A stretch of 64,000 nucleotides of DNA, taken from NCBI GenBank assembly GCA_942490825.1, contig CALNYG010000005.1:134240-198239 (forward strand), given 5' to 3'. Origin of the DNA: Candidatus Moraniibacteriota bacterium. GTDB taxonomy: Bacteria; Patescibacteriota; Minisyncoccia; Moranbacterales; GCA-2747515. Within the stretch, counting starts at the first letter, position 1. Every line of letters starts with the position of its first letter. Position numbers and translations under genes: made by a program. Positions 162 to 44,762 of the stretch are shown piece by piece. The notes beneath the pieces are model-generated. The model was not told the DNA's origin. It saw only the letters and a program-made list of their open reading frames with translations, and searched no databases.

Positions 162-932
162 ATGAACATAACCCAAGCCCTAAAACAAATAAACTGCACT
201 GATAACGAAATAAACACCTTTCTCGCAGTTTTAAACAAAAAAGAAGGCATAACAGTTGTACAATTAAGTCGAGAATTAAACTTACCACGACCAACCATTT
301 ACGGACACCTCAATTCCCTTGCGGAAAAACAATTAATTAAAAAAGCACTAATTGAAAGCGGATCACGATTTTATGCTGAAGATTTAGAGAATATCACTCA
401 AATATTTGATAAAAAAAGCGAAAAAATAATTCAAGCAAAAAAAACATTAAAAGAAAGTCTAAAATCACAAAATAATCCCAGTTATCAACCAAAATTTTCC
501 ATTTACGATAATTCAAATTCAGCGGAATCTATATTTAACGATATTATACGAACTGGTGAAGAAACTTACTGGTTTTGGTCAGCGGAGGAAATGGTGAAAA
601 CAATTTCTCCAGATGTATTTAAGTCATTTAATCAGAAAAGAATAGAAAGAAACATAAAATTAAACGTTTTATGGCCAGAGAAAAAAACCGTTGATTTAAA
701 CGAAAATATATTTATAGGGAGTTCTAACTTGAAAGAATCTTTGCGAGAGATTAAAATTTTACCTAAAAACATTGATTTTACGATGGGATATGGTGTTTAC
801 GGTAATAAAGTGGCTTTTATTTCATCCCAGAGGGAAAATTATGCGTATGTGATTGATAGTAAAGAATTAAGTGAAACTATGAAGAATCATTTCAATTATT
901 TTTGGGAAATATCTAAAAATTACACGGAATAG
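162..932 (+). CDS. TrmB-family-like winged-HTH transcriptional regulator
   Basis: 256-aa ORF. The N-terminal segment FLAVLNKKEGITVVQLSRELNLPRPTIYGHLNSLAEKQLI looks like a TrmB/MarR-type wHTH. The C-terminal domain is uncharacterised. Confidence 0.6.
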   Translation: MNITQALKQINCTDNEINTFLAVLNKKEGITVVQLSRELNLPRPTIYGHLNSLAEKQLIKKALIESGSRFYAEDLENITQIFDKKSEKIIQAKKTLKESLKSQNNPSYQPKFSIYDNSNSAESIFNDIIRTGEETYWFWSAEEMVKTISPDVFKSFNQKRIERNIKLNVLWPEKKTVDLNENIFIGSSNLKESLREIKILPKNIDFTMGYGVYGNKVAFISSQRENYAYVIDSKELSETMKNHFNYFWEISKNYTE

Positions 933-969
933 TCGTTTTTTGGTGAAAAAAAGCTATTTTTGGTATATT

Positions 970-987
970 TTGTTCCACGTGGAACAA
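970..987. promoter_or_regulatory. parS-like palindrome, site 1 (TTGTTCCACGTGGAACAA)
   Basis: Perfect 18-bp palindrome. The core TGTTCCACGTGGAACA differs at one position from the Bacillus subtilis parS TGTTCCACGTGAAACA. Confidence 0.6.
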
Positions 988-1010
988 TTAAGTGAATTTA
1001 AAATAAAAAA

Positions 1011-1028
1011 TTGTTCCACGTGGAACAA
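1011..1028. promoter_or_regulatory. parS-like palindrome, site 2
   Basis: Perfect copy, extended to the 22-bp palindrome AATTGTTCCACGTGGAACAATT (1009-1030). Confidence 0.6.
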
Positions 1029-1050
1029 TTCAGATAGAATAGTATTAAAA

Positions 1051-1068
1051 TTGTTCCACATGGAACAT
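1051..1068. promoter_or_regulatory. parS-like palindrome, site 3 (degenerate)
   Basis: TTGTTCCACATGGAACAT has two mismatches to the other copies. Confidence 0.45.
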
Positions 1069-1233
1069 TTTTCGAATATTTTATAAAAATAAACGTAATT
1101 AGGTAAAATATGACAAATATTGTGAGAATTTTTTGAAATTGCTACATTAATTTCTTATATGGAAGTTATATTATTTCTCATTTCCCTCCTCTTTATGCTT
1201 ATTTCACACAATAATGGGTGTTTCGTGATTAAA

Positions 1234-1251
1234 TTGTTCCACGTGGAACAA
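1234..1251. promoter_or_regulatory. parS-like palindrome, site 4
   Basis: Perfect copy within the 22-bp palindrome at 1232-1253. Confidence 0.6.
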
Positions 1252-1309
1252 TTTCTTTGATTAAGTAAGTTTATTTTTTATCATTGCTAGTTTTAGCGAA
1301 GTAATTTCC

Positions 1310-1338
1310 ATAGTGAACGATTTTAAATCGTTCACTAT
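1310..1338. repeat. Inverted repeat ATAGTGAACGATTT-T-AAATCGTTCACTAT
   Basis: 14-nt arms read directly. It lies between parS-like sites 4 and 5. Function unknown. Confidence 0.4.
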
Positions 1339-1364
1339 AACAATCTATGATTCTGCTAATATAA

Positions 1365-1382
1365 TTGTTTCACGTGGAACAA
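1365..1382. promoter_or_regulatory. parS-like palindrome, site 5
   Basis: TTGTTTCACGTGGAACAA. The left half TGTTTCAC equals the canonical parS half-site. Confidence 0.55.
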
Positions 1383-1730
1383 AAGATTGGCTTAATAAAT
1401 TAAACTATAGTAATCTATTGCAATAAGTTTCTGTAGGCTTTTAAGAAAGACTCAACATTTTAAATTGTTAACTTGTTATTATTCAGTTAATAAGTCTCGA
1501 TTTTATCACTATCATGATTTATTTTAAATAAAAATAAATAAACTTTTCTAAAAGGGTTAATATAACGTATTAAATATTAAAATAAAGCGTAATTGTACGA
1601 CAAAAATGCTTAGTAGCTTTTTTAAATTTTTTAATACAAGAGCACCTAAATTTATTCCTAAACTAGCTATTAAATTTTAGTGCAGAATTTAAACTCCAAA
1701 ATATAGTAAATTAGATAGAGGGACTTGTTT

Positions 1731-1748
1731 TTGTTCCACGTGGAACAA
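1731..1748. promoter_or_regulatory. parS-like palindrome, site 6
   Basis: Perfect copy, ending 2 nt before the stop codon of the minus-strand gene at 1751. Confidence 0.6.
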
Positions 1749-1750
1749 TT

Positions 1751-2818: not shown

Positions 2819-4930
2819 ATGGGAATCCATAAAATCAAAAAACGCAACGGAGAGATAGTAGATTTTGACATATCAAAGATAGAAAGTGCCATAGAAAAGG
2901 CCTTTTCAGCAACAGGAATTCAGGATGATTCAAGTAAAATTTGCGAGAAAATCTATGTAGAATTAGATGAAAATTATACAGAAGAAGTACCTACAGTTGA
3001 AGAAATACAGGATGCCGTCGAAACTATTTTAATCAAAGAAGAATATTCAGATACTGCCAAAGCATATATCCTCTATCGTCAAAAAAGAATCGAACAGCGA
3101 GCTGATCAAAATGTCATGGTAGACGTTGAAAAAACCATGGGGGAATACCTCAAACAGTTAGATTGGCGAGTTAATGCCAATTCAAATATTGGGTACTCTT
3201 TGGGAGGGATGATTTTAAACACTTCGGGAAAAGTTACTGCGAACTATTGGTTATCACATGTTTATCCAAAAGCTATTGGAGAAGCTCATCGAAATGCTGA
3301 CATTTATATTCACGATTTGGATTTTTTCTCAGGATATTGTGCCGGCTGGAGTTTGCGAGTTTTATTAGAAGAGGGATTTAACGGGGTTCCTAGTAAAGTC
3401 GAATCAGATCCGCCGAAACATCTTTCGAGCGCAGTTTCTCAAATGATTAATTTTTTAGGAACTTTACAGAACGAGTGGGCAGGAGCACAGGCTTTTTCTA
3501 GCTTTGACACATATTTAGCCCCTTTTGTCAAGAAGCGAGAAATGGAATTGCGAAAAGAAATCGAAGAATCTGAAATGAGTTTTCCTTCAGATGATAAAAA
3601 AGAAGCGTATATTGAAAAATCAATTGAAAAATACGTTTTTCAAAATGTTCAGTCTTTCGTATTTAATTTAAATATTCCATCTCGATGGGGAACACAGACA
3701 CCTTTTACTAATATTACATTAGACTGGCTGTGTCCAGATGATATGAAAGAGAAGACTTTGCTATTAGGAGGAAAGCCGTTCGAATATAAATATGGTGAAT
3801 TGCAGAATGAGATGAATGTTATTAATAGAGCTTTTCTTAAAGTGATGATGAAAGGAGATGCAAAAGGGCGAACCTTTACCTTTCCAATTCCGACCTACAA
3901 TATTACCAAAGATTTCAATTGGGAAGATCCAAAAGTTTTACCACTTTTCGAAATGACAGCTAAATACGGGACTCCTTATTTCCAAAATTTCATTAATTCT
4001 GACTTAGATCCGAAGGACGTGCGGTCAATGTGTTGTCGTTTACAGTTAGATTTGAAAGAATTACGTAAAAGAGGTGGTGGATTATTCGGTTCAGCGGAGA
4101 TGACAGGTTCAATCGGTGTAGTTACGTTAAATATCGCAAGAATTGGTTACAATTTTAAAGGTGATAAAGAAGGATTATTAAATAGGATTAAAGAATTAAT
4201 GGAACTAGCGAAGACTTCTTTAGAAATTAAACGAAAAGTTATTCAAAAATGGACAGATTTAGGTTTGTTTCCCTACACAAAGCGTTATTTAGGCAAATTA
4301 GATAGTCATTTCTCAACAATTGGTGTGAATGGAATTAATGAAGCAATTCGTAATTTTACGGATGATAAGGAAAACATTGTTACAGAATATGGTCAAAAGT
4401 TTGCTGAAGAAGTTTTAGAATTTGTTCGAGAAGGGCTTTCCGAATTTCAAGAGGAGACTGGTAATCTTTATAATCTTGAGGCAACGCCAGGCGAAGGTGC
4501 AAATTATCGTTTTGCCAGGGAAGATCAAAAGAAATTTGAAGAAATTATTCAGGCTGGAACTGAAGATGCTCCTTATTATACTAATTCTACTCAAATTCCA
4601 GTGGGATATACTGATGATGTATTTGAAGCACTTGATTTACAGGATAAATTACAAACAATGTACACAGGAGGAACTGTTTTTCATGCGTATATGAGTGAGA
4701 AACTAAGTTCAGGTGAAGCGTGTCGAGATTTAGTGAAAAAGATTTTAACTAATTATCATTTGCCTTATTTGACAATTACTCCGACATTTTCTGTTTGTCC
4801 AAAGCATGGTTATTTAGCAGGAGAGCATGAGTTTTGTCCAAAATGTGATGATGAATTAGGTATTGTGGATGGTGATAAAGTTGATCCGGAGATGGTGAAG
4901 AAACATAGGAGTGAGGAAGCACATCGTTAA
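2819..4930 (+). CDS. nrdD: Anaerobic ribonucleoside-triphosphate reductase (class III RNR) large part; lacks the glycyl-radical C-terminus
   Basis: 703-aa ORF. It has an N-terminal ATP-cone (IKKRNGEIVDFDISKIESAIEKAF) and the C-terminal zinc motif CPKHGY...CPKC. It then ends in a non-conserved 25-aa tail without an RVxGY-type glycyl-radical motif. Confidence 0.9.
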   Translation: MGIHKIKKRNGEIVDFDISKIESAIEKAFSATGIQDDSSKICEKIYVELDENYTEEVPTVEEIQDAVETILIKEEYSDTAKAYILYRQKRIEQRADQNVMVDVEKTMGEYLKQLDWRVNANSNIGYSLGGMILNTSGKVTANYWLSHVYPKAIGEAHRNADIYIHDLDFFSGYCAGWSLRVLLEEGFNGVPSKVESDPPKHLSSAVSQMINFLGTLQNEWAGAQAFSSFDTYLAPFVKKREMELRKEIEESEMSFPSDDKKEAYIEKSIEKYVFQNVQSFVFNLNIPSRWGTQTPFTNITLDWLCPDDMKEKTLLLGGKPFEYKYGELQNEMNVINRAFLKVMMKGDAKGRTFTFPIPTYNITKDFNWEDPKVLPLFEMTAKYGTPYFQNFINSDLDPKDVRSMCCRLQLDLKELRKRGGGLFGSAEMTGSIGVVTLNIARIGYNFKGDKEGLLNRIKELMELAKTSLEIKRKVIQKWTDLGLFPYTKRYLGKLDSHFSTIGVNGINEAIRNFTDDKENIVTEYGQKFAEEVLEFVREGLSEFQEETGNLYNLEATPGEGANYRFAREDQKKFEEIIQAGTEDAPYYTNSTQIPVGYTDDVFEALDLQDKLQTMYTGGTVFHAYMSEKLSSGEACRDLVKKILTNYHLPYLTITPTFSVCPKHGYLAGEHEFCPKCDDELGIVDGDKVDPEMVKKHRSEEAHR

Positions 4931-9268: not shown

Positions 9269-9721
9269 ATGAAAATAGTTCCACAATATGTCGATATAGA
9301 AGATAAAATAGTAGGTCCATTAACCTGGAAACAATTAGGTTGGTATGGTGGCGGTGGAATAATTCTAGTTATTTTTTATCAATCTCTCGATAAATCAGCC
9401 TTCTACGCAGCAGCTATCCCAGTAATAATAATAATTTCACTATTCGCATTTTACAAGCCCCAAGGACTAACCTTAATTCAATTTATTGGATTTGCAATTC
9501 TTTACGTATTTAAACCACGTCGATATCTATGGCAGAGAGATCCTGAAATAAAAAAACAAAAAAAATCAGAATCTTTTGAAATGAATCAAGTTATTCACAA
9601 TAAAAAACCAGTGAATACAGACGATATTTCAATAATAGCTCACACATTAGACACTAGAGGTGAAAATGAAAATGGCAAATTAGAAGAAATTTTAAAAAAG
9701 CGAACAGGTTATAATGGTTAG
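9269..9721 (+). CDS. PrgI-family (VirB3-like) small membrane protein of Gram-positive/CPR type IV secretion-like systems
   Basis: 150 aa. The N-terminus MKIVPQYVDIEDKIVGPLTWKQLGWY followed by two TM helices is the typical PrgI signature. Confidence 0.7.
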   Translation: MKIVPQYVDIEDKIVGPLTWKQLGWYGGGGIILVIFYQSLDKSAFYAAAIPVIIIISLFAFYKPQGLTLIQFIGFAILYVFKPRRYLWQRDPEIKKQKKSESFEMNQVIHNKKPVNTDDISIIAHTLDTRGENENGKLEEILKKRTGYNG

Positions 9722-9792
9722 ATAATAGATAAATTTTAAATTAAATATTTTTAAATTTACTAATATATTAATTTACTGTTTATAAAATAAAA

Positions 9793-10470
9793 ATGACAAA
9801 AAAAGCAAAAGAAAATCAGAATATCAGTACACTAAAATATGTTGATATTCAAACTATCAAAGATGGTGTAGTTGTACTTAAAAATGGTTCCTTAAGATCT
9901 GTTTTATTAGTATCTTCAATTAATTTTGACTTGAAATCATCTGATGAACAGAGAGCTATTATAGGAGCTTATCAAAATTTTCTTAACTCCTTAGATTTTC
10001 CAATTCAAATAGTGATCAATTCTCGAAAATTAAATATTCGACCATATTTAGAACAATTAAAAGAAAGTGAGAAGGGTCAACGCAATGAACTTCTTAAGAT
10101 TCAAACTGCGGAATATAGAGCTTTTGTTCAACATCTTACAGAGGTCACCAATATTATGAGTAAATCTTTTTACATCGTAGTACCATTTTCTCCAATTGAA
10201 AGTAATACTGGGGGAATCTTGAGTAAATTATCATCCTTATTAAACCCATCCCAAGTAGTAACTGAACGTCGAGAGGTATTTGAAACCTATAAGAATCAAC
10301 TTTATCAAAGAGTTGAGCACGTTGCAGCAGCGTTAAGTGGAACTGGATTGAATTTTACAACTTTAGATACTGACGAATTAATTGAGTTGTTTTATAATTC
10401 ATATAATCCATCTGTTTTCGCTCGATCTGCAATTAAGAATATTGAGAAAACTGAGTTAGTTAGTTTGTAA
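9793..10470 (+). CDS. Hypothetical protein resembling a VirB4/TraC N-terminal domain
   Basis: 225 aa. LKNGSLRSVLLVSSINFDLKSSDEQRAIIGAYQNFLNSLDFPIQIVINSRKLNI follows the pattern of VirB4 N-domains. There is no NTPase motif. Confidence 0.5.
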   Translation: MTKKAKENQNISTLKYVDIQTIKDGVVVLKNGSLRSVLLVSSINFDLKSSDEQRAIIGAYQNFLNSLDFPIQIVINSRKLNIRPYLEQLKESEKGQRNELLKIQTAEYRAFVQHLTEVTNIMSKSFYIVVPFSPIESNTGGILSKLSSLLNPSQVVTERREVFETYKNQLYQRVEHVAAALSGTGLNFTTLDTDELIELFYNSYNPSVFARSAIKNIEKTELVSL

Positions 10471-10873
10471 ATTAATAATTATTAATTTACAATTTTGAAT
10501 ACAATTATTTCAAAAAAATAATTTTACCTACTCCATAAATGATTTCATCAGATATTTAGAAAATTTATTAAATAATTAGATTTCAGAAGATCAATTTTTA
10601 AATTTACATAAAAACAATAACCCAAAAAATACTTATGATATTATAGTGTCTCTAAATCATTATCTTTCTGACTCAGATATTAGAAATAAAGATGAAGAAT
10701 ATACAAAAATACAAAATAATGAATTAAAAAAGTTAATTTATTGTTAAAAAAATAACAAGATGCAAGAAGTTGTTGAAAAAATAAATTTTTTAAAAGAATC
10801 TTCTATCAATATTGCTTAATAATTTAAATAATTTCTAGTTACTGATTATCAGTTACTATTTACAAAAAACAAA

Positions 10874-12745
10874 ATGTTATTTAGTAAAAAACAAAAAAAA
10901 CAAGATCAGGTAATTGTAGACACTCCAGAAGAAATTTTGGAACGTGAAAAATTCTATCAAAAAGGAGTTGCTACAGTTCGTGGATTAATTGCTCCAAGTG
11001 CTTTAAGTATAACTCCTAGTAGCATTCAAGTTGGCGACACACTTTCATCTACTTTATTTGTAATAGCTTATCCACGATACCTAAACGACAATTGGTTTTC
11101 ACCAATTGTAAATATAGATTTTCCAATGGATGTGGCTATGTTTATTCATCCGGCAGACAGTCGTAATGTGTTAAAAAGTTTGAGAAAAACTTCTACTCAC
11201 GTTCAATCACAAATGCATATCGAAGCAGAAGCAGGAAAAATCCGCGATCCTATGCTAGAGACTGCATTAGAAAATGTGGAGACTTTACGAACACAATTAC
11301 AACAAGGAACAGAGAGGTTTTTTAGATTTGGTCTGTATGTAACTTTCTATGGAGAAAATGAGGAGGAGTTAAGACGAAATAAAAATGAGGTTACGGCGAT
11401 TCTAGAAGCTCAAATGATTTATACAAAACCTGCCACTTTACGCATGGATCAAGGTTTTCTTTCCAGCATTCCTCTATGTAATGATAAACTAAATAACGGA
11501 AATAATTTAAATACCGCACCACTTTCAACAACGTTTCCGTTTGTTTCTTCCAATCTCTCTTCTAATGAAGGAATTCTTTATGGTATTAATCGACATAACA
11601 ACAGCTTGATTTTGTTTGATCGATTTAATATGGAAAATGCCAACATGGTAATTTTTGCTAAATCTGGTGCTGGTAAAAGTTATTTTGTAAAATTGGAAAT
11701 TTTGCGATCAATGATGTTCGGAACTAATGTTATTGTAGTTGATCCAGAAAGTGAATATAAGCATTTATGTCAAACTGTAGCCGGAAGCTTTATTAAAATT
11801 TCGCTTGGATCAAAGGCATGTGTTAACCCTTTTGAACTACCAAAAATTCCCACTGATGAAAGACCTCAGGATGTTTTTAGAAACACAGTTGCTGGTTTAA
11901 TTGGTCTTCTTCATTTAATGCTAGGATCTGTTACAGCTGAAGAGGATACTGTATTAGAAAGAGGTGTTAGAGAAGCTTATGCAGTACGAGACATTAGTGA
12001 AAATAGTAATTTCGGCTCTATTCCACATTCAGGCTACCCAACAATGTCAGATCTTTATGAAGTTCTAGTCAACATGGATGGTGGTGATTCTCTTTCAAAA
12101 AGACTGGCTAAATATACCGAGGGTATTTTCGCTGGATTTTTAAATCGACCAACAAATGTTGAGATTAATAATCAGATGGTTGTATTCAATATTCGGGATT
12201 TAGAAGATGAATTGCGACCAATTGCTATGTATATTATTTTACAATTTATTTGGAATGAGATGCGTTCTAATATGACTCAAAGAATGGTTGTAGTTGATGA
12301 GGCTTGGGTTATGATGCAAAGTGAGGACGCAGCTTCTTTTATGTTTAGTATTGCAAAGCGTTGTCGTAAATATTACACAGGATTAACAACCATTACACAG
12401 GATGTGAGTGATTTCATGTCTAGCCGTTTTGGTAAGCCAATTGTAACTAACTCATCACTTCAATTACTTCTTCGTCAATCTCCAGCTTCAGTTGATGTTA
12501 TTGCAGATACTTTTTATTTAACTGATCATGAGAAATTTTTATTACTAGAGAGTGGCGTTGGAGAGGGAATTCTTTTTGCAGGGCCAAAGCATGCAGCAAT
12601 TAAAATTATTGCTTCTTATAGTGAAGATAAGATTATTACCTCAGATCCTCGACAGTTAGAGAAAATGAAAGAGCAAGAAGAACTGGAAAAACAAGTAGGT
12701 CTAGAAAATGTTCAACGTCAGTCAGATGATATTGAGTATCAGTAA
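10874..12745 (+). CDS. virB4: VirB4/TrsE/PrgJ-like type IV secretion ATPase
   Basis: 623 aa. Walker A FAKSGAGKSYF, Walker B MVVVDEAW, and a C-terminal TTITQDVSDF motif. Confidence 0.85.
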   Translation: MLFSKKQKKQDQVIVDTPEEILEREKFYQKGVATVRGLIAPSALSITPSSIQVGDTLSSTLFVIAYPRYLNDNWFSPIVNIDFPMDVAMFIHPADSRNVLKSLRKTSTHVQSQMHIEAEAGKIRDPMLETALENVETLRTQLQQGTERFFRFGLYVTFYGENEEELRRNKNEVTAILEAQMIYTKPATLRMDQGFLSSIPLCNDKLNNGNNLNTAPLSTTFPFVSSNLSSNEGILYGINRHNNSLILFDRFNMENANMVIFAKSGAGKSYFVKLEILRSMMFGTNVIVVDPESEYKHLCQTVAGSFIKISLGSKACVNPFELPKIPTDERPQDVFRNTVAGLIGLLHLMLGSVTAEEDTVLERGVREAYAVRDISENSNFGSIPHSGYPTMSDLYEVLVNMDGGDSLSKRLAKYTEGIFAGFLNRPTNVEINNQMVVFNIRDLEDELRPIAMYIILQFIWNEMRSNMTQRMVVVDEAWVMMQSEDAASFMFSIAKRCRKYYTGLTTITQDVSDFMSSRFGKPIVTNSSLQLLLRQSPASVDVIADTFYLTDHEKFLLLESGVGEGILFAGPKHAAIKIIASYSEDKIITSDPRQLEKMKEQEELEKQVGLENVQRQSDDIEYQ

Positions 12746-12837
12746 GTAAATTTTTAAATTTCCAAGTCGTTAGGCGAATAAATCTAAATTTTATTTATAT
12801 AATTTTTGCATTATAATATTTTAGTTAACATAAAGAT

Positions 12838-13554
12838 ATGCCTAGAAATCCAGAACTCCTTGCTAGACTTTATAATAGAACTCCGGAAGAGAGTAAGACT
12901 GGGGCTAAACTTAATAATGCCAGACTTCAAGATGAAAATCAAAGCATGTCTGAAAATTTTAGTAATAGAATACAAACTAATATCAGTAACCGCGTAGATG
13001 ACTTTACTAGAAAACAAGCTCTACAAAGAGCTAGGCAAATTGATGATATTAAAGAAATCGCTAAAAATGATCAATTTGTTGAAGATGCTGAAACTTTTAG
13101 AAGCATAGTTCAAGGTAATAAATTGAAAGCACCACTTAAAGCTATTAAATTAGCATTGACTTCAAGGAAGGCTGTTAAAGATCATAAAAAACATGCTTGG
13201 ACAATGCCTTTTGTAGTAGCTTTGGCAATGGATGGAATTATTAGCATTATAAGTGCTGCAATTAGCACAGTTTTACCCATCCCTGTTTTTTCTCCTGGAA
13301 AATTAATGTTGTTATGTGGTTGGATTTATTTGCTTATTTTTTTATGGGGAACTGGAGCACAGTTAAAAGCTAGAATCATCGGATTAGTGTTTGCTTGTAT
13401 TGAAGTTTTTATTCCTTTTGTAAGTTTATTACCCCTTAGTACATTAGCAGTTTATATGGCCTACAGAAAATCAGAAAAAAAATATATGAAAGGAAAAGCC
13501 CACCAAGAAGAATTTAGTCAACAATATCCAGGTGTCTCCATAGAGCAAGCCTGA
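12838..13554 (+). CDS. Hypothetical membrane protein (soluble N-terminal half, 3 or more C-terminal TM helices)
   Basis: 238-aa ORF in the VirB4 operon context. A VirB6-like role is only a guess. Confidence 0.55.
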   Translation: MPRNPELLARLYNRTPEESKTGAKLNNARLQDENQSMSENFSNRIQTNISNRVDDFTRKQALQRARQIDDIKEIAKNDQFVEDAETFRSIVQGNKLKAPLKAIKLALTSRKAVKDHKKHAWTMPFVVALAMDGIISIISAAISTVLPIPVFSPGKLMLLCGWIYLLIFLWGTGAQLKARIIGLVFACIEVFIPFVSLLPLSTLAVYMAYRKSEKKYMKGKAHQEEFSQQYPGVSIEQA

Positions 13555-13609
13555 CCATTTGCTCATTTTATGGTAAATTAAAGATAGAATATTATTTTCC
13601 AAATATAAA

Positions 13610-14299
13610 ATGTATTTTATAATTGACGATCTAAAAAAAATAAAACATACTACGGTGGAATTAATCGTTTCATTGTTTTTTGCTTTGAGTTGCTTATTAT
13701 TATTTTGGCTACTACCCAAAGAAATTGAGGGTCGCTTAGACATGACAGAATCAATTTTGAGAGCTTTTATATTTCTTGTGGTTTTCCCAATTTTATATAT
13801 TCGTATTGTTTTAAAGAAAAGCTTTGCTGATATATATATTAGTTCTCACAAAAACATTCTTCAAACAATCTTACCTACAATATTTGCTTTAGCGGTGGGC
13901 GTGTTATCAATTGTATGTATAACACAATCCTTTTTAAGAGATCATTATTATTCATTAGTAAATTATTTATCAATAAAATTTCAGGTGTTTTTAATATATG
14001 AAGTATTTATAGCTTTCTTTTATTTATTTTTTGTGATTTTCAGTTTTGGCTTTGTAAATTCTATAACTAAAAAATACGACAAATTAAATAAACTACTGCC
14101 CATCTTTACTTTTTTCTTATTATTAATGACTTTTTTTGATTCTTCGGGAGAGCTTTTATTAATTAATTTATTGATGATTTTGCCAACTTTATTCTTTAGA
14201 AAAATAGTAAATATCAGTCAATCAATTTGGTCTTTATACTTTCTACTTTTACTTTTAAACATTATTTTAAATACTGTTATTATTAAAATTGCATTATGA
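13610..14299 (+). CDS. Hypothetical polytopic membrane protein
   Basis: 229 aa, almost entirely hydrophobic helices. Its stop overlaps the next start (ATGA at 14296-14299). Confidence 0.55.
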   Translation: MYFIIDDLKKIKHTTVELIVSLFFALSCLLLFWLLPKEIEGRLDMTESILRAFIFLVVFPILYIRIVLKKSFADIYISSHKNILQTILPTIFALAVGVLSIVCITQSFLRDHYYSLVNYLSIKFQVFLIYEVFIAFFYLFFVIFSFGFVNSITKKYDKLNKLLPIFTFFLLLMTFFDSSGELLLINLLMILPTLFFRKIVNISQSIWSLYFLLLLLNIILNTVIIKIAL

Positions 14300-17289
14300 A
14301 ACAAATTAAAAAAATCAAAAAAAAATTATTGGCATCGTTTCTTATTTTAGAAATCATTATTTTTTCTACAATACCAACTCACCATGTTGATGCGTATATA
14401 CCAGTAGTTTCAGAAATAGCTGGCGTACTCGGAAGTGTAGCTGGAGATGTTGTTGGGGAACCAGTTTCAAATTTTATTAGCGAGTTTTTTGAAAATGATC
14501 TTAATTTAGCTATTACACAACTTCCTATTGACCAATTAAATGCCATCGATAAAAAAGATATGATGCCTCAAGTTGATATAAGTTTCACAGGAACAGTTGA
14601 CTTGGGAGAATACATAACCGCTACAGCAAATCCAACTGGATTAATAAATCCACAAGATGCTTATTATAGTTGGTATCTTATAGAGGAAGGTGAAGATCCT
14701 ACTGACCCTGAAGTTATAAATGAAGGAAAAATTAGAGCTATTAAAGCAATGGTGGAGGCTAATTCTAATTTCAATCCATTACTTTATGATCAGAAATTTA
14801 ATGGTGGAAATGAAAATGGAAAAATTGATGGTGATGAATGGCCAGAGACTGAATTTAAAGTTGAAGCAGCTTTTTTAGGAGGTGCTAGCAATAGATCAGT
14901 TAAGGAACCTCGTATGTACGCTTGGTTTGACGGTGCTTTTTCTGAATTAGGTAAAGCTAAAAAAATAGACTATGGCACATGTGATGAAGGTTTTGTGCCC
15001 ACTTGTATGTTGGAATTTAATGGTGGAACACCTTGTCCAATACTAGATCCACCTGTAGAGGGTGAAGTAACTTCCTCTTCATCTTCTGAAGGTGGTGGAG
15101 GAGGAGCTTCTGATTCAAGTAGCGCTACTGCAGATGGTGGTAGTGGAGGTGATTCTGAATCAGACTCATCCGCCAAAATAGAAGAAGAGCCAACCACAAG
15201 TGGGGGTTTAAGATTTTCTCAATGTCTTGCTGCAGGCGAGCCTAAATGCAGTGCCTTTAATAGAGGAGAAACTGTTTGTCCTTTTGGTGGGGAGCCTTAT
15301 TGTGCTCCTACATTAGACACCGACTTAGGATATGATTTTTATAAAAAAAATACTGTTTGTCCAAATCCTCATGTGGTTTGGAAAGCTCTTTTTGAAGAAG
15401 GTCAAAATGCGGTAGGAGCTGAATGTAAAGACTTTGAAGAAGATTATCTAACTAAATTCGAGTGTTTTGAGTCGCCAGACGAAGAAGATGATTATGAACC
15501 TTATAATGATGAGGAGATGCATTTTTTTCCCAGGAGTGGTGGCGATGCAATGTTTGGAATAGAAGACAAAATTACTTCCGGAGTAAAACTCTCTTTTAAC
15601 ATGGACCCAATATCAGTATCGACAACTAAATTAGGAATTCCTGATATAGATTTAATCAGAGGAAAGGGCATGAATAATCTAAAATTTAAAGCAATTGGAG
15701 AAAATGGGAAAAGAGTTAAAGTTGGAGTTGTAGTTGAAGGTTTATCATCTAACCAAACTCCTCATTATGACGAAAATAGTGATGATGAAGGAGGTGGTTA
15801 TATGCCCGTTTTTGCATTTATGTCAGGAGGCTGTGAAATGGATAAAAAGGATAAAGGAGGTTATTCTATAGTAGTCAAAGGAAAAGAAATAACTGTACAA
15901 ACTGCAGATATGAAAATGGATGATTTAAATAAGTGCTTAGCTAACAATTTAGTTGATCCAGGATCAAGTCAGAGCGATCCATTAAATGTTAAACTAACTA
16001 CAAACTGGGACAATATAGCTGTTACTGTTGGAATAGGAAATACTATACAAATTAATCCTATGATTAACAGTGACTCAAATAGAATGCTTGATCTATCCAG
16101 AATGAATTATAAGTGGAACGTAACTTGTTCAGATAATCCAGGAAATGTATGTGAAGAAGGTTTTGATATAACTAAAGATCTACGAGAAGCTGGCAATTTG
16201 AACAGTAAAACTATTGGTAATGATCTAGGCTCGTTGAAAATGCTTGCAAATAATTTAGATGATAAATGTTTTGATGATGGAGGCAGAGGCTATCTATGCA
16301 CTACCTTAAAAGCAAACACAAACCATGGAGGAGATACTACTAGTTTTGGCATGCAATCAAAAATAATTCCGATTCAAAAGTCAGGAGGCAAATTAAAAGC
16401 TTATTCGACGACAACAGATGGACAAACTGTAAATAGTAGAGAAGAAATTTGTAAAGATAGAATGAATGAAGCTCTTTGCCGAGTGGTAAAAGGAGAAATT
16501 ATTGGAGTTGAAATGGTTGTGCCAGAAGGAGGAGATAAAGAGCTTGTTTCCTGGACAGTTAATAGAGTAGGTTATTCTTGTGATAGCAGTGTTTCTAATG
16601 AATGTGCTGATGACAATAATACAAATAAAATATTTTTTCCTATAACTGGTAATATAGGGGAGTCTATCACAATAATAGCCAACTATAATGATCCTAGTGA
16701 GACTACACATGGCTATCAATCTATTCAAAAAACTTTTCAGATAGTTGCTCCAAGTATTTCTATTAAACCTCTAGAAGGCGGCAAATTTAAGCTCTTAGGA
16801 AAATATCTTGGCCGAAATAAAAAAGAATATGAAGATAGAAGCAATGGAATTATAGAAATACAACCCGATAACAGTGCTACCTTAGAAGCTGTATTTACAC
16901 CTAGCTTTATTGAAAGTGATACAAAAATAACATGGAATATCAATGGATCAAAAAGTTATGAGAAAAAATTACAAATTGCCCCAAATTTACCTAACAATGT
17001 TAACCTAAGAGCAACTTATACCCATTCACAAACAAAAAAAGATGCTCTATATAATATATTTGGAGTTAGTCAATTTAACACCAAAGACACGTATATGATT
17101 GCGACTGCCAGATTAGTTTCTGCTAAAACAAAAGCAATTGGCAAGAACAAACAAAATGGATTTTTTGCAACAACAGCTAGCAACACACCAGCTTATTTTT
17201 TCTTTCTTTTAAAAATGGCCTTGATGGTTAGTGTAATGTTATTTGTTTCTCGTCTAGCATTAAATGTTGCTTCTTTTAATAAGCGTTAA
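14296..17289 (+). CDS. Large Cys-rich surface protein with an N-terminal signal/TM and a C-terminal TM anchor
   Basis: 997 aa. It has an acidic S/G/D/E tract (SSSSSEGGGGGASDSSSATADGGSGGDSESDSS) and many Cys residues. The C-terminal hydrophobic segment is YFFFLLKMALMVSVMLFV. Confidence 0.7.
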   Translation: MKQIKKIKKKLLASFLILEIIIFSTIPTHHVDAYIPVVSEIAGVLGSVAGDVVGEPVSNFISEFFENDLNLAITQLPIDQLNAIDKKDMMPQVDISFTGTVDLGEYITATANPTGLINPQDAYYSWYLIEEGEDPTDPEVINEGKIRAIKAMVEANSNFNPLLYDQKFNGGNENGKIDGDEWPETEFKVEAAFLGGASNRSVKEPRMYAWFDGAFSELGKAKKIDYGTCDEGFVPTCMLEFNGGTPCPILDPPVEGEVTSSSSSEGGGGGASDSSSATADGGSGGDSESDSSAKIEEEPTTSGGLRFSQCLAAGEPKCSAFNRGETVCPFGGEPYCAPTLDTDLGYDFYKKNTVCPNPHVVWKALFEEGQNAVGAECKDFEEDYLTKFECFESPDEEDDYEPYNDEEMHFFPRSGGDAMFGIEDKITSGVKLSFNMDPISVSTTKLGIPDIDLIRGKGMNNLKFKAIGENGKRVKVGVVVEGLSSNQTPHYDENSDDEGGGYMPVFAFMSGGCEMDKKDKGGYSIVVKGKEITVQTADMKMDDLNKCLANNLVDPGSSQSDPLNVKLTTNWDNIAVTVGIGNTIQINPMINSDSNRMLDLSRMNYKWNVTCSDNPGNVCEEGFDITKDLREAGNLNSKTIGNDLGSLKMLANNLDDKCFDDGGRGYLCTTLKANTNHGGDTTSFGMQSKIIPIQKSGGKLKAYSTTTDGQTVNSREEICKDRMNEALCRVVKGEIIGVEMVVPEGGDKELVSWTVNRVGYSCDSSVSNECADDNNTNKIFFPITGNIGESITIIANYNDPSETTHGYQSIQKTFQIVAPSISIKPLEGGKFKLLGKYLGRNKKEYEDRSNGIIEIQPDNSATLEAVFTPSFIESDTKITWNINGSKSYEKKLQIAPNLPNNVNLRATYTHSQTKKDALYNIFGVSQFNTKDTYMIATARLVSAKTKAIGKNKQNGFFATTASNTPAYFFFLLKMALMVSVMLFVSRLALNVASFNKR

Positions 17290-21935: not shown

Positions 21936-22725
21936 TTACTTAAAAATCCCCCGAAAAAATCTCAAGACCCAACCTTGCCATTTCCTAAAATGCTTAGCAA
22001 AAAAATAATCCTGCGATTTATAATACTCAACCTTTTGCAATTTCTCTTCCGACCAACTCTTACCACCCCAATGGAAAACCTCACTCAAAGGAAAATAAAA
22101 AATTTCAGCTCCAACACTTTTTAACCGCAAACACAAATCCTGATCCTCAAAATACATAAAAAAATTATCATCAAAACCATTCAAATCATTAAATAATTTT
22201 TTCTCAACAATCATTGCACAACCACTAGCCCAATCAACCTGCGTAACATTATTATTTATCCAAGGTTTTTTTTGTAAATTTATTTCTAGAGATAATATTA
22301 AACAAAGAAGTTTTATAACCACATGACCAATCCTGAACTTCACTATTTTTAATATCTAAAACCTTTAAACCTAAAATTTTATTTTTATTTTCCTCACTTT
22401 TTAAAAAATCAATAATCTCAATAAATGAATTATTTCTAAATTCAGTGTCTGGATTAAGAAAAAACAAATATTTTCCTTTAGATATCTTTGATCCCTTATT
22501 ATTAGCATCGCCAAATCCTAGATTTGCATCATTTTCTAAAATTTTTAATTCAAATTTAAAGTCATTTTTTAAATCTAACTTGTTCTTATCATTATTAACC
22601 ACAAGCACTTCAAAGTCATCTTGTAAAACAGGTGTTATAAACCGATCAACACTTTTTAAGCATTGATTTAAAAAGTTTAAACTCTTATAATTAACTATAA
22701 TAATAGAAATAAATTTTTGAGACAT
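21936..22725 (-). pseudogene. Family-2 glycosyltransferase split by a frameshift in an A8 tract
   Basis: The N-terminal ORF (22252-22725) has IIIVNYKS...NPDTEF. The C-terminal ORF (21936-22343) has VDWASGCAMIV...FMYFEDQDLCLR. The two frames join if the A8 run (plus-strand T8 at 22266-22273) were A7. Confidence 0.75.
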
Positions 22726-31106: not shown

Positions 31107-31879
31107 GGTATTGCTACCAAACTATAGATAATGTAAAATGAATAGGTAATTAAATACCTAAAAACAAAAAAATGAAAATTAAATGCCCTCATTGCAATAA
31201 TAAGAATTATGTTAAAAATGGTAAAGTAAATAAAAAACAAAGATATCTATGTAAAGAATGTAGCTATAACTTTTCTAGATTTACAAAAAGAGGAAAACCT
31301 AAAGAAATTAAGAAAAAAGCAATTGAAATGTATTTAGAGGGACTAGGATTTAGATCAATAGGAAGAATACTGAAAGTTAGTAACGTTAGTATATTAAGAT
31401 GGGTAAAAAAAGCAACTAAAAAATTAAGGAATATTTTAAAAAGTAAAAAAGAAGTAAAATATTGGAAAATAGAAAAAATGGAATTAGATGAAATGTGGCA
31501 TTTTGTGTTAAAAAAAAGAAAAAAGCCTGGATTTGGCTTGCAGTTGATAGATCTAGTAAAATAATAATTGATTTCGTGATAGGGACAAGAGGTGAAAAAA
31601 CTGGAAGAAAATTATGGGACAAAATCAAAAAAATTGATTGCGATAAATACTGTTCAGATCATTGGGATGTTTATAAAAAATTTTTACCAAAAGATAAGCA
31701 CATTCAAACAAAAGCAGAGACTTTTACAGTTGAAGGAATGAATAATCAATTAAGACATTATATAGCAAGATTTCATAGGAAAACTCATTGTTATTCTAAA
31801 AGTATTGAAATGGTTGAATATACAATCTTGCTATTCATGCACAGAGAAATTGCTATTTCTATATTTGAGTAGCAATACC
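31107..31879 (+). mobile_element. IS1-family insertion sequence (773 bp) with 8-bp target-site duplication AAAAAATT
   Basis: IRL is GGTATTGCTACC (compare E. coli IS1 GGTGATGCTGCC). IRR is GGTAGCAATACC in reverse. The flanking direct repeats lie at 31099-31106 and 31880-31887. Confidence 0.85.
31172..31872 (+). CDS. IS1 transposase InsAB' (InsA zinc-finger/HTH plus InsB catalytic part; programmed -1 frameshift)
   Basis: InsA frame: CPHCNNKNYVKNGK..YLCKEC. The -1 frame reads AWIWLAVDRSSKII...GTRG. The slippery run TTAAAAAAAAG lies at about 31508-31518. The frame offset between the two ORFs is -1. Confidence 0.85.
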
Positions 31880-32524: not shown

Positions 32525-33028
32525 ATGACAAATTTCTATTTTATAAATGAAAATAACCTCAAAATGTTTGTAACGATAGCCTTATTATTAAGTCTAGTGT
32601 CTTTAATTATATCTTTAATTTTATTTTTGCAAAATCGCAAGAACAATAAAAAATTAAAGCTACTTTTTCGTGGAAAAAAAGGAAAAGACTTAGAACAAAT
32701 CATTTTAGACAATAACGATAAAATAGAACATTTTGACAAAGAAATTCAAGAACTATTTGATATTTCCAATCGGATCAATAAATTAGCAGGAAAAGGACTT
32801 AGTCGTTTCAAGGTTGTGCGATTCAATCCGTTTAAAGATTTAGGTGGAGATCAGAGTTTTGTAGCAGCTTTTTTAGATAGTCAAAACGATGGTTTAGTGA
32901 TTTCGTCTATGCACACACGAGAAGGAACACGAGTTTATTCAAAGCCAATTATTAAAGGCAAGAGTGAGAAATATAAATTAACAGATGAAGAGGTGAAAGC
33001 GATTGAGATGGCGAGTGAGGGGAAATAA
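32525..33028 (+). CDS. DUF4446-family protein
   Basis: 167 aa with an N-terminal TM. RFNPFKDLGGDQSFVAAFLDSQNDGLVISSMHTREGTRVYSKPI matches the DUF4446 pattern. The true start may be the internal Met at about 32564. Confidence 0.65.
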   Translation: MTNFYFINENNLKMFVTIALLLSLVSLIISLILFLQNRKNNKKLKLLFRGKKGKDLEQIILDNNDKIEHFDKEIQELFDISNRINKLAGKGLSRFKVVRFNPFKDLGGDQSFVAAFLDSQNDGLVISSMHTREGTRVYSKPIIKGKSEKYKLTDEEVKAIEMASEGK

Positions 33029-41628: not shown

Positions 41629-41773
41629 GGTTATATGTATTTAATTCACTTAGATTAATAGGTATTATGTCTTTATTTTAACATATAGTCAAGAATAAAT
41701 CCGTGTTTATTAATGAATTTAAAAACTAATATCAAGATGATTGCCTAAATATTAACCTTCTGTAATCAATTTC

Positions 41774-41782
41774 TGTGGATAA
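41774..41782 (-). promoter_or_regulatory. DnaA box (perfect TTATCCACA on the minus strand)
   Basis: TGTGGATAA read directly, upstream of dnaA. Confidence 0.7.
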
Positions 41783-41816
41783 CTCCTTAATAACTATTAC
41801 TTTACACTTTCATCCC

Positions 41817-41845
41817 TTGCAAAAAATACCCTTAAAGCCTATAAT
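41817..41845 (+). promoter_or_regulatory. Candidate dnaA promoter TTGCAA-17-TATAAT
   Basis: Spacing counted directly. Confidence 0.5.
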
Positions 41846-41892
41846 AACACAATATTTATCTAAAAAATTACAAATCAACTCTATTATAACAG

Positions 41893-41901
41893 TTATCCAC
41901 T
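41893..41901 (+). promoter_or_regulatory. DnaA box (TTATCCACT, one mismatch)
   Basis: Read directly. Relaxed boxes TTATAAACA follow at about 41912 and 41923. Confidence 0.55.
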
Positions 41902-41992
41902 AATACACAGGTTATAAACAGTTTATAAACATTCTCTTTCTTCAATTAAGTGCTATACTTATACTAAATTTCACATTAATCTAAGAAAACCC

Positions 41993-43390
41993 ATGGAAAA
42001 CAATCATCAAGAGACCTGGAAAGCATCATTAGGAGTCATAGAATTATCCATTTCTAAAGCTAATTTCAATACATGGTTTAAAAACACCTCAATAATCTCG
42101 ATTGAAGATAATCATGTTACCGTAGGCGTTCCCAATGGTTTTGCAAAAGAATGGCTAGAAAACAAGTATCAATCATACATACTTTCCGCAATAAAGACGA
42201 TCGTTCCTAATGCAAATAGTCTTAGTTGCGTAATTTCCACACCTAACAAAAAAAATGATGATTCAACAGGCGCTACCACAGCAAAAACAATAGAAAATAA
42301 GGTTAATAATCCTCCAATAAGTAGAAATTATAAACCTTCAGTTACTTCTAATTATAACAATAGAATTACTCTTAACAATAAATATAATTTTGATAGCTTT
42401 ATTGTTGGTGAAAATAATGAACTTGCTAAAGCTGCTTGTCATGCTGTTTGTGAAAACCTAGGAAAAATATATAATCCTTTGTTTATTTATGGAAAAGTTG
42501 GCTTAGGAAAAACTCATTTATTACAATCAATTGGTAATTATATCAGAGAAAAATATCCAGAGAAAAAGATTATTTATACAACTTCCGAAATATTCACTGG
42601 AGAATTAATTGAATCTATAAAAACTAATAAAGCAGCTGAATTTAAAAGAGAATATCAAAAAACTGACCTTCTTATTATTGATGATGTTCAATTTCTTTCT
42701 GGTAAAGAAAAAACTCAACAAGAATTTTTTCATATTTTCAATGCACTTTATCAACTAAATAAACAAATTGTTATTTCCAGTGATAGACCTCCTAAATCTA
42801 TCAGTACACTTGAGGAGCGTTTACGTTCTAGATTTGAAGGCGGTATGATTGCTGATGTTAGTGAGCCTGATTTAGAAACAAGAATGGCTATTCTACGTAA
42901 TAAAACACTCGAAAAAGAGTTTTACATAAATGATGAAATCTTAAGATTTATCGCAAAAAATATCAAAAATAACGTTCGTGAGTTAGAAGGAGCTTTAAAT
43001 AGGATTATTGCTGTTTGTGATTTATATAAAAGAGAGCCTACAATTGAATCTGTTACTGGAATATTATCAGAAATAATCGATAGCAATAAAAAAACTGGAA
43101 TCCAAAATAAAGATATAATTGAGGCTATTATTGAATTTTATGAAGTAACTAACGAGGATCTTATGAGTAAAAGCAGAAAAAAAGAAATTTCCTTGCCAAG
43201 ACAAATCGCTATGTATTTATTCAGAACTGAATTAAAATTATCATATCCTGGAATTGGTAAATATTTTGGTGGACGTGATCATACTACAGCTTTACATGCT
43301 TATGAAAAAATTAATAAAAGTTTGAATACTGATGATAAAATAAAATCAGATATAGATTATTTACAGGAAAAGTTATATACAGTTGTTTAG
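41993..43390 (+). CDS. dnaA: Chromosomal replication initiator DnaA
   Basis: 465 aa with GKVGLGKTHLLQ (Walker A), LLIIDDVQF and the C-terminal DNA-binding domain (HTTALHAYEKI). Confidence 0.95.
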   Translation: MENNHQETWKASLGVIELSISKANFNTWFKNTSIISIEDNHVTVGVPNGFAKEWLENKYQSYILSAIKTIVPNANSLSCVISTPNKKNDDSTGATTAKTIENKVNNPPISRNYKPSVTSNYNNRITLNNKYNFDSFIVGENNELAKAACHAVCENLGKIYNPLFIYGKVGLGKTHLLQSIGNYIREKYPEKKIIYTTSEIFTGELIESIKTNKAAEFKREYQKTDLLIIDDVQFLSGKEKTQQEFFHIFNALYQLNKQIVISSDRPPKSISTLEERLRSRFEGGMIADVSEPDLETRMAILRNKTLEKEFYINDEILRFIAKNIKNNVRELEGALNRIIAVCDLYKREPTIESVTGILSEIIDSNKKTGIQNKDIIEAIIEFYEVTNEDLMSKSRKKEISLPRQIAMYLFRTELKLSYPGIGKYFGGRDHTTALHAYEKINKSLNTDDKIKSDIDYLQEKLYTVV

Positions 43391-43394
43391 AAGT

Positions 43395-43438
43395 TGTGGA
43401 TAAGTCAGTCAAATTTTGTGGATAATTATTGTGGATAA
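43395..43438 (-). promoter_or_regulatory. Three tandem perfect DnaA boxes (oriC core, dnaA-dnaN spacer)
   Basis: TGTGGATAA occurs at 43395-43403, 43417-43425 and 43430-43438. A very AT-rich stretch follows up to 43619. Confidence 0.8.
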
Positions 43439-43619
43439 GTTAGATGAAAAGTTAATAAGTAGCGTTTTATTTTAAATACCTCTCAATTCACCACAATGCA
43501 AGATTAAGCTGTTACTAAGTAGAGAGGTTTATTTTCTTTTGTAGACTAGCTTAATTGGACTTATGCACTTTTGCACAGTTTAATAGTAATAATAGATTTA
43601 ATTATATAAAGATACTAAT

Positions 43620-44762
43620 ATGATAATTACATGTACGTATGAAAAATTTAGAGAAGCTCTTTTATTTATAGAATCAGCTACAGGTAAAAATTCTAGTCTA
43701 CCAATTATAAATAATATTTTAATTGAAGCAAAAGAAAATCAATTACATTTTTCTGCTACTAATTTGGAAATAGGAGTTATTAAAAGGATTCAAGCTAAAA
43801 TAGAGGAAGGTGGAAGTGTGGTTGTGCCAATACATTTACTTTTAAATTTTTTAACTGCTTTGAGAGGAGAGGAAAATATTAATTTAGAATTAAAGGAAAA
43901 TCAATTAACTTTAAAAAGTGGAGCACATACAACTCAAATTAATAGTTATAATGCAAAAGATTTTCCAATTATTCCTCAAAGTTCCGAAAGAAATTTTTTA
44001 AATTTTAATTTAGAAAATTTTAAGAAAATAATTTCTAAAGTTTTTCCTTTTGTGAGTAGTTTGGAAACCAGACAGGAATTGACAGGTGTTCTTTTTAAAA
44101 TTGAAGATGATAATGTTTATACTGTGGCTACGGATAGTTTTAGATTGGGAGAAAATATTATTTCTAGTAATGATTTAGTAAATAATAAAAATGCTAATGT
44201 TGAATTAAGTGAAGAAAACTTTATTATTTTAACAAAACAGCTTTGTTTGTATATAAATAAAATTGGGGATAATTATAAAGATGTGAATTGTTGTGTGGAA
44301 AATAATCATCTTTTTATTGAATGTGAGGATTTGAGCGTTACTGCCAAACTTATTGATGGCAATTATCCAGATTATAAACAGATTATACCCAGTAGTTCTT
44401 CAACTTTAATCACGGTGAATAAGGCTGAATTTATTGAGGCTTTGAAGGTAACTACGGTTTTTGTTGGTAAGGATAATAAGGAAATATTTTTTGATATTCA
44501 TAATGACAAGATGAAAATTACTACTAAACAACAGGAAAATGGAAGTAGTACTACGGAATTGGATATTTCATTGGATGGGGAAAAGCAAGAAATTGCTCTT
44601 AATCCAAATTATGTTTTGGAGGGTGTTAGAAAAATAAGTGAGGAAGAGATTTCTATTTCGATTAATAATAAAATGACGCCGGTTATTTTTAAGGGTGTTA
44701 GTGAGGGTAAAATTAATGAAAATTTTACTTACTTGGTTATGCCGGTTAAAAGTGCTTCTTAA
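43620..44762 (+). CDS. dnaN: DNA polymerase III beta sliding clamp
   Basis: 380 aa in the position immediately after dnaA. It has a typical three-domain length and N-terminal pattern (LPIINNILIEAKENQLHFSATNLEIG). Confidence 0.9.
   Translation: MIITCTYEKFREALLFIESATGKNSSLPIINNILIEAKENQLHFSATNLEIGVIKRIQAKIEEGGSVVVPIHLLLNFLTALRGEENINLELKENQLTLKSGAHTTQINSYNAKDFPIIPQSSERNFLNFNLENFKKIISKVFPFVSSLETRQELTGVLFKIEDDNVYTVATDSFRLGENIISSNDLVNNKNANVELSEENFIILTKQLCLYINKIGDNYKDVNCCVENNHLFIECEDLSVTAKLIDGNYPDYKQIIPSSSSTLITVNKAEFIEALKVTTVFVGKDNKEIFFDIHNDKMKITTKQQENGSSTTELDISLDGEKQEIALNPNYVLEGVRKISEEEISISINNKMTPVIFKGVSEGKINENFTYLVMPVKSAS

Follow-up and report, generated by a model that had tools for sequence, protein, structure and literature searches.

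A dense array of predicted parS sites near the likely replication origin of a Moranbacteria-like chromosome

Clusters of parS sites have been described on the chromosomes of several model bacteria. In P. aeruginosa four sites lie near oriC and six more are dispersed, and parAB is located approximately 7 kb from oriC (PMC4368675). The sites bound best by its ParB, parS2 and parS3, have the sequence TGTTCCACGTGGAACA, and changes in the CACGTG core lowered ParB binding (PMC4368675). In Caulobacter crescentus five strong parS sites fall within 5 kb, approximately 8 kb from ori and on one side of it; the sites nucleate ParB, and their clustering has been proposed to concentrate it (PMC5815017). In C. 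glutamicum the sites parS1-10 extend over 35 kb at a distance of 73 kb from oriC and are mostly intergenic, and ParB nucleation and SMC loading at parS have been confirmed by ChIP-seq (PMC7083940).

Here we describe six parS-like palindromes in a 64-kb stretch of DNA (hereafter the window, meaning the whole stretch that was analysed) from a Moranbacteria-like chromosome. With P. aeruginosa parS1-parS4 the array shares an identical 16-bp sequence, the clustering of several high-affinity sites near oriC, and a gradation from perfect sites to sites with one mismatch (PMC4368675). It differs in that its six sites are packed into 0.78 kb and parAB is absent from the 64-kb window. As in Caulobacter crescentus, the cluster lies to one side of the origin. 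However, the array in the window is approximately ten times denser, and it lies in a non-coding spacer, whereas the Caulobacter sites are within or close to essential genes, beside parAB. The likeness to C. glutamicum is that of a one-sided, mostly intergenic cluster located tens of kb from oriC (73 kb there, approximately 40 kb here), and the difference is again one of density, with ten sites in 35 kb compared to six in 0.8 kb.

The sopC centromere of plasmid F is made up of 43-bp units, twelve in tandem, and SopB binds an inverted repeat in every unit. It is a true tandem repeat that includes the spacers, it adjoins sopAB, and its motif differs from that of chromosomal parS. Like sopC, the array has ParB-family sites with a period of approximately 40 bp, as sites 1 to 3 of the window are 41 and 40 bp apart. 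In the window, however, only the palindrome is repeated and the motif is that of chromosomal parS. A plasmid-type, sopC-like tandem centromere was rejected because the spacers are unrelated to one another, no parAB is nearby, and the context is chromosomal (dnaA, dnaN, infB and ruvABC).

The array and its setting in the window

A motif search with TTGTTCCACGTGGAACAA returned exactly six matches in the 64-kb window at up to three mismatches, all of them within 970-1748, and no further copy was found elsewhere in the 64 kb even at this tolerance. The matches that start at 970, 1011, 1234 and 1731 are perfect, the one at 1365 has one mismatch, and the one at 1051 has two. The start-to-start spacings are 41, 40, 183, 131 and 366 bp. 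By chance a mean of 0.01 matches is expected, and none of 100 dinucleotide-preserving shuffles reached six. The original prediction had listed six palindromes with their positions, mismatches, spacings and uniqueness in the window, and all of this was reproduced exactly by the motif search. When the 16-bp parS consensus TGTTNCACGTGNAACA is used as the reference, five of the six sites are perfect and the remaining one has a single mismatch. The TTGTTCCACGTGGAACAA mismatch in the site at 1365 touches only the free N position of this consensus.

The six sites are described here without strand. Site 1 (971..986) has the perfect sequence TGTTCCACGTGGAACA and is conserved in three loci from close relatives, L003, L004 and L005. 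Site 2 (1012..1027) is perfect and is contained within the 22-bp palindrome AATTGTTCCACGTGGAACAATT at 1009-1030; its counterparts carry single changes (TGTTCCATGTGGAACA in L003 and TGTTTCACGTGGAACA in L005). Site 3 (1052..1067), with the sequence TGTTCCACATGGAACA, has one change in the central CACGTG (to CACATG), and its counterparts in L003 and L005 are perfect. Site 4 (1235..1250) is perfect and sits inside the second copy of the 22-bp palindrome at 1232-1253. Its counterpart has decayed to TTGTTCTGCATGGAATAA in L003 and L004, which indicates turnover of sites. Site 5 (1366..1381) has the sequence TGTTTCACGTGGAACA, with a B. subtilis-type half-site, and is perfect to the consensus; no counterpart was found in L003. 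Site 6 (1732..1747) is perfect and lies 3 bp past the stop of the gene at 1751-2467. A perfect site at 2014-2029 in L005 occupies the same place relative to the homologous downstream gene.

The core of these sites had been regarded as a fully symmetrised version of parS. It is not a new form, as TGTTCCACGTGGAACA is the sequence of P. aeruginosa parS2 and parS3 and is also the commonest variant among the perfect consensus sites in the loci that we collected (508 of 819).

The array is held in an ORF-free spacer (933..1750, without strand) that is bounded on both sides by the stop codons of convergent genes. The left flank is a gene for a TrmB-family winged-helix protein (162-932, forward strand), which ends at 932. 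The right flank is a gene on the reverse strand for a beta-propeller/SdiA-regulated-like protein (1751-2467), with its stop at 1751, and after it comes nrdD (anaerobic ribonucleotide reductase). This placement between convergent 3' ends would keep the predicted ParB-DNA complex off promoters.

The ORFs within 933-1750 are short only (at most 66 aa from stop to stop). A blastx search for homologs of these ORFs gave only matches produced by translating the palindromes, and an Rfam search of the spacer gave nothing near the gathering score, only spurious miRNA-hairpin matches. The statement that the region holds no credible ORF is borne out by these searches. The interpretation of the spacer as a decayed gene was rejected, as both blastx and a ligase-family profile match only the translated palindromes and no ligase remnant was found with the profile. 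A non-coding RNA was likewise rejected because no Rfam match comes near the threshold.

The window, which is part of a 374-kb contig, has a G+C content of 25-35%, and the best named relatives of its proteins are from Candidatus Moranbacteria and Patescibacteria. The genes dnaA (41993-43390) and dnaN (43620-44762) were both confirmed by their Pfam domains. Five perfect TTATCCACA DnaA boxes are present in the window, and four of them flank dnaA (at 41774, 43395, 43417 and 43430), three of these being in the dnaA-dnaN spacer. The segment made up of dnaA and its flanking DnaA-box clusters (41629..43619, forward strand) is the likely oriC, and it is relative to this segment that the array is called origin-proximal. 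Because dnaA-dnaN and the DnaA boxes are placed there, the array is approximately 40 kb from the likely oriC, and the distance of about 40 kb from the dnaA-dnaN origin in the original prediction is correct. Chromosomal parS sites are expected to be origin-proximal and rare elsewhere, and this is the distribution found within the 64-kb window. Array-free loci from relatives, 60 kb in all, yielded no parS-like sites.

Similar arrays in relatives and in other phyla

Homologs of the window TrmB-like protein are 89% identical in L003 and L004 and 79% identical in L005. In all three loci a triplet of sites with approximately 40-bp spacing directly follows the TrmB-like gene. Within the triplet region 46 of 48 site bases are identical in both L003 and L005. 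The non-site columns of the same region are identical at 61 of 93 positions in L003 and at 45 of 97 in L005 (46-66%), and in L005 the interior of the spacer has been replaced by unrelated sequence with a small gene. The sites have been kept while the spacers drift, which indicates selection on the motif, mainly in the triplet, rather than on the DNA around it. In L003, the 89% relative, the counterparts of window sites 4 and 5 have decayed or are missing, and not every site in the window need therefore be functional.

The same architecture is found in many other bacteria. A scan of genomes (one per species) for two sites 15-35 bp apart identified at least 120 loci in many phyla. Clustering of the neighbouring ORFs in the 120 loci listed gave ParA at 53, ParB at 51, and MnmG and RsmG at 45 each, followed by MnmE and Jag (20 each), YidC (18) and DnaA (15). 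Representatives of the ParB, ParA, MnmG and RsmG clusters were confirmed by Pfam. A second scan, for metagenome contigs with site triplets, also identified at least 120 loci, many on short contigs; among the 120 listed, ParB is present in 50 and ParA in 71. The spacing of neighbouring sites in the listed loci peaks at 35-50 bp within the permitted 31-56 bp, and the 40-41 bp spacing of the window falls in this mode. Six or more sites are present in 29 of the 240 loci listed, and the densest locus has 23.

Dense parS arrays are common across phyla, and this arrangement of the motif is tied to partition genes and to the origin neighbourhood. The clusters of the model organisms are approximately ten times sparser, yet dense arrays are common in sequence data. 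The original prediction had described the dense array as an unusual layout, a description that does not stand beside at least 120 loci with site pairs, at least 120 with site triplets, and the 29 of 240 listed loci with six or more sites. The lack of an adjoining parAB had also been considered unusual. In AT-rich, CPR-like metagenome contigs with arrays it is the rule (ParB in 0 of the 15 loci listed), and dense arrays are often unlinked to parAB.

Among the CPR relatives, the DnaA proteins of two metagenome contigs, L139 and L195, are 57-58% identical to the window DnaA, and the arrays of both are 0.3-2.2 kb upstream of dnaA. In L139 five sites are contained in a duplicated unit of approximately 145 bp, about 270 bp upstream of dnaA and beside DnaA boxes. 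In L195 five sites are found approximately 2.2 kb from dnaA.

The sites of L195, and those of a Parcubacteria MAG locus (L094), are in frame inside an ORF of the O-antigen-ligase family; in L094 a triple-site unit of approximately 110 bp is repeated three times. A homology search with the ligase-family ORF gave at least 120 ligase-family proteins, many of them named Moranbacteria, in a ranking that is biased because the query itself contains the site modules. The peptides FH[VM]E, STWN or VPRG[TN], which result from translating TTCCACGTGGAA in its three frames, are present in 114 of the 120 ligase-family proteins listed. In three 21-kb loci all parS-like sites are inside the ligase gene (12 of 12 in L252, 7 of 7 in L254 and 7 of 7 in L255), and the gene is part of a conserved block of CCA-adding enzyme, ligase and gyrA. 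Neither of the two ligase paralogs in the window contains a parS site.

The arrays of L252, L254, L255, L195 and L139 resemble that of the window in having the same motif, 5-12 sites per 0.3-1.3 kb and no parAB within 10 kb. They differ in location. The sites of the relatives are either in frame in a ligase gene that neighbors gyrA or immediately upstream of dnaA, whereas those of the window are in a spacer between TrmB-like and beta-propeller-like genes. The ancestral state of the clade was likely a centromere in frame in an O-antigen-ligase-family gene, with the array subsequently moved to a non-coding spacer in the lineage of the window.

ParB and other possible readers of the array

With the exception of a few groups, ParB is, to our knowledge, nearly universal. 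It is very probable that ParB is present in the source genome, given this near-universality and the perfectly conserved parS motif, which is hard to explain without ParB. In the window no ParB or ParA was found, either by Pfam on approximately 50 ORFs or by a ParB/ParA profile run in six frames at E<=10. None was found in approximately 227 kb of CPR-like sequence from about nine related genomes, which includes regions beside parS arrays and dnaA. The flanks of the ligase-hosted arrays of L252, L254 and L255 likewise contain no ParB within 10 kb on either side. The ParB profile was validated by its detection of 50 ParB proteins in other listed metagenome loci. A literature search on ParB or parS in Patescibacteria, CPR, Moranbacteria, Parcubacteria and Saccharibacteria found nothing usable.

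Two candidate routes to a ParB gene were tried and rejected. DUF4446, with a copy in the window at 32525-33028, adjoins parB in L181 but infB without ParB in the close relative L127 and in the Moranbacteria loci L129-L131. The IS1-like ORFs at 31172-31872 were considered as a possible frameshifted parB gene; they resemble transposases and have no match to the ParB profile.

The approximately 227 kb without ParB or ParA was sampled around arrays and dnaA, the usual places of these genes, and on these grounds a lineage without canonical ParAB can be proposed. Its dense parS arrays would be read by another protein, for example by a member of the expanded group of TrmB-like winged-helix proteins, perhaps the one whose gene adjoins the array. 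We consider this very unlikely. If true, the centromere would have retained the universal parS sequence while its reader was replaced.

A different role for the TrmB-like protein is that of a transcription factor for which the palindromes are an operator array. Under this interpretation the adjacent protein (162-932) in particular would regulate its own gene or, for example, nrdD. The TrmB-like gene directly adjoins the array in the window and in L003, L004 and L005, L252 and L254 have TrmB-like paralogs at a distance of 3-9 kb from the array, and no ParB has been located to claim the sites. The adjacency in the three close relatives is, however, conserved synteny, and the paralog near the L252 array is only 25% identical to the window protein. 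The array lies beyond the 3' end of the TrmB-like gene and between convergent 3' ends, which leaves no promoter to control, and the sequence upstream of the gene (1-161) has no site. In L001, a non-syntenic locus with four TrmB-like genes, the TrmB homolog is 62% identical and no copy of the motif occurs within 20 kb. Arrays without a TrmB-like gene nearby are found in L255 and L195, and a TrmB-like ORF accompanies only one of the 120 metagenome arrays listed, at a distance of 11 kb, compared to 71 with ParA. The published TrmB operators known to us (of the TACT-N7-8-GAGTA type, and TATCAC-N5-GTGATA) are unlike parS. The original prediction had offered a TrmB operator array as its alternative; with convergent 3' ends, a homolog that lacks the motif and one listed metagenome array in 120, it has become highly improbable.

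The palindromes could also belong to a locally amplified repeat module that happens to carry parS-like sequences, multiplies through duplication or insertion and has no present centromere role, for example as a relic after the loss of parAB. Repeated modules do exist in relatives (the unit of approximately 110 bp present three times in L094 and that of approximately 145 bp present twice in L139), sites have turned over between the window and L003, and the failure to locate ParB is compatible with a relic. In the window, however, the spacers are not repeats of one another and only the palindrome is repeated; the 65-78% identity over 40 nt between them reflects the site itself and AT-richness. 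Conservation is far higher in the sites than in the spacers, which argues for selection on the motif and not for a mobile unit, and a relic would decay if no protein bound it. There is accordingly very little chance that such a module accounts for the array.

Least of all do we favor structural hairpins in RNA or DNA, such as bidirectional terminators or REP-like elements between the convergent genes, with an incidental resemblance to parS. A terminator-like scan does flag five of the palindromes (7 matches in 1-2900 compared to 0.9 expected), there are palindromic sites just beyond the two stop codons, and as RNA the palindromes fold to -8 to -11 kcal/mol. Yet the stems are weak (-8 kcal/mol) and contain just three G-C pairs, no U-run follows the hairpin in the transcript of the 1751-2467 gene, a terminator needs structure and not the fixed 16-base sequence that is kept in relatives, across phyla and within coding regions, and a REP- or MITE-like family would leave dispersed copies, of which there are none in 64 kb, all six being within 0.8 kb.

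A predicted ParB-loading centromere

We interpret the six palindromes as chromosomal parS sites that together form the predicted ParB-loading centromere of a Moranbacteria-like chromosome, and from the sequence comparisons we give this reading a probability of roughly 85%. The canonical motif and the conservation of sites over spacers support the original prediction of an origin-proximal parS centromere at which ParB loads. This prediction gains further support from the occurrence of the same closely spaced motif alongside parAB and oriC genes across many phyla. We infer that a ParB exists in this genome, binds to the sites and spreads from them.

The mechanism that we propose is drawn from ParABS systems studied elsewhere. 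Canonical ParB dimers would bind each 16-bp site through their helix-turn-helix domains. Binding to parS would trigger the CTP-dependent closure of the ParB clamp, which would then slide onto the adjoining DNA. With six loading sites in 0.8 kb, and 40-41 bp between three of them, ParB may be loaded at a higher rate. The result would be one concentrated ParB-DNA partition complex approximately 40 kb from oriC, and this complex may be the handle for ParA-driven segregation, for SMC loading, or for both.

This analysis annotates the predicted centromere of an uncultivated bacterium with a reduced genome and helps to locate its origin domain. It should be useful for work on ParB or SMC in the Patescibacteria. 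Very dense parS arrays, with sites 35-50 bp apart and up to 23 per listed locus, are common in sequence data. The ligase-hosted arrays, each contained in frame and in full in a gene for a membrane protein, offer a natural case of dual selection on one stretch of DNA, as protein and as centromere, and those of the Moranbacteria may hold more interest than the array of the window itself.

Likely origin region and hairpin of the window

Three perfect DnaA boxes occupy 44 bp of the dnaA-dnaN spacer (window 43395-43438) and one more perfect box is found upstream of dnaA (window 41774); oriC therefore likely adjoins dnaA. In the identical Logan contig L126, the gene after dnaN (4072-4365) belongs to the DciA family.

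The spacer that carries the six-site parS array also contains a hairpin (window 1310-1338) with perfect 14-bp arms, ATAGTGAACGATTT and AAATCGTTCACTAT. As RNA it has an energy of -15.5 kcal/mol (z -5.5), and no U-run was found 3' of it. The counterpart in L003 (4947-4975), the relative with an 89% identical TrmB-like protein, has paired changes in the arms, GAACGA to GAACGG and TCGTTC to CCGTTC.

Other loci of the window

A type-IV-secretion-like cluster (window 9269-17289) lies in a chromosomal context, 8-16 kb from the parS array. Its members include a PrgI-family protein, a VirB4/TraG-like ATPase and large proteins that lack a Pfam match. A family-2 glycosyltransferase is divided between two overlapping ORFs of 135 and 157 aa in different frames (window 21936-22725). 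The close relative L127 encodes the protein in one gene of 267 aa, so the split is due to a frameshift or else to a sequencing error. Two further overlapping ORFs in different frames (window 31172-31872), just upstream of a DUF4446 gene (32525-33028), have a sequence suggestive of an IS1-type transposase. The DUF4446 gene adjoins infB, without parAB, in the window and in Moranbacteria (L127 and L129), and adjoins parB in the metagenome locus L181.

Dense parS arrays across phyla and within ligase genes

Canonical parS sites set 35-50 bp apart, in pairs, triplets or longer runs, are a common feature in many phyla (genome loci L006-L125 and metagenome loci L132-L251; at least 120 loci per scan), and the richest of the loci listed has 23 sites. 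Examples of dense runs are L204 (12230-13979), L088 (5922-7964) and L181 (4603-5511). The parS clusters described from model organisms are much sparser than these runs. In L202 and L204 parA and parB flank the array or are surrounded by it. Four parS-like sites are present on a contig labelled Nitrosopumilus, an archaeon (L109 3246-3548). In two metagenome contigs open frames of approximately 660 aa cross 17 sites (L239 4274-6265 and L153 2288-4279); these are either real proteins or merely stop-free palindrome arrays.

In Moranbacteria and Parcubacteria relatives an O-antigen-ligase-family (Wzy_C) gene that adjoins gyrA contains the entire array of 7-12 perfect sites in frame. Such arrays were found in the Moranbacteria loci L252 (10001-11653), L254 (10001-11677) and L255 (10001-11752), where the ligase gene holds every parS-like site of each 21-kb locus, as well as in the metagenome contig L195 (11385-12488) and the Parcubacteria locus L094 (6840-8000). 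The L252 and L254 proteins are less than 50% identical, and their genes share offsets 254 and 404 for the first two parS sites. The ligase protein P0162 shares 47% identity with the L094 query. Peptides translated from the palindrome (FHVE, STWN or VPRGT) occur in 114 of the 120 best ligase homologs, a ranking biased by a query that itself bears such modules. A literature search found no paper on a parS array in frame inside an O-antigen-ligase-family gene.

Possible array growth by duplication

A parS-bearing unit of approximately 145 bp is tandemly duplicated in the metagenome contig L139 (13560-13850), about 270 bp upstream of dnaA and adjoining DnaA boxes. L094 likewise contains three copies of a triple-site module of approximately 110 bp. 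These duplications suggest that parS arrays grow by local duplication.
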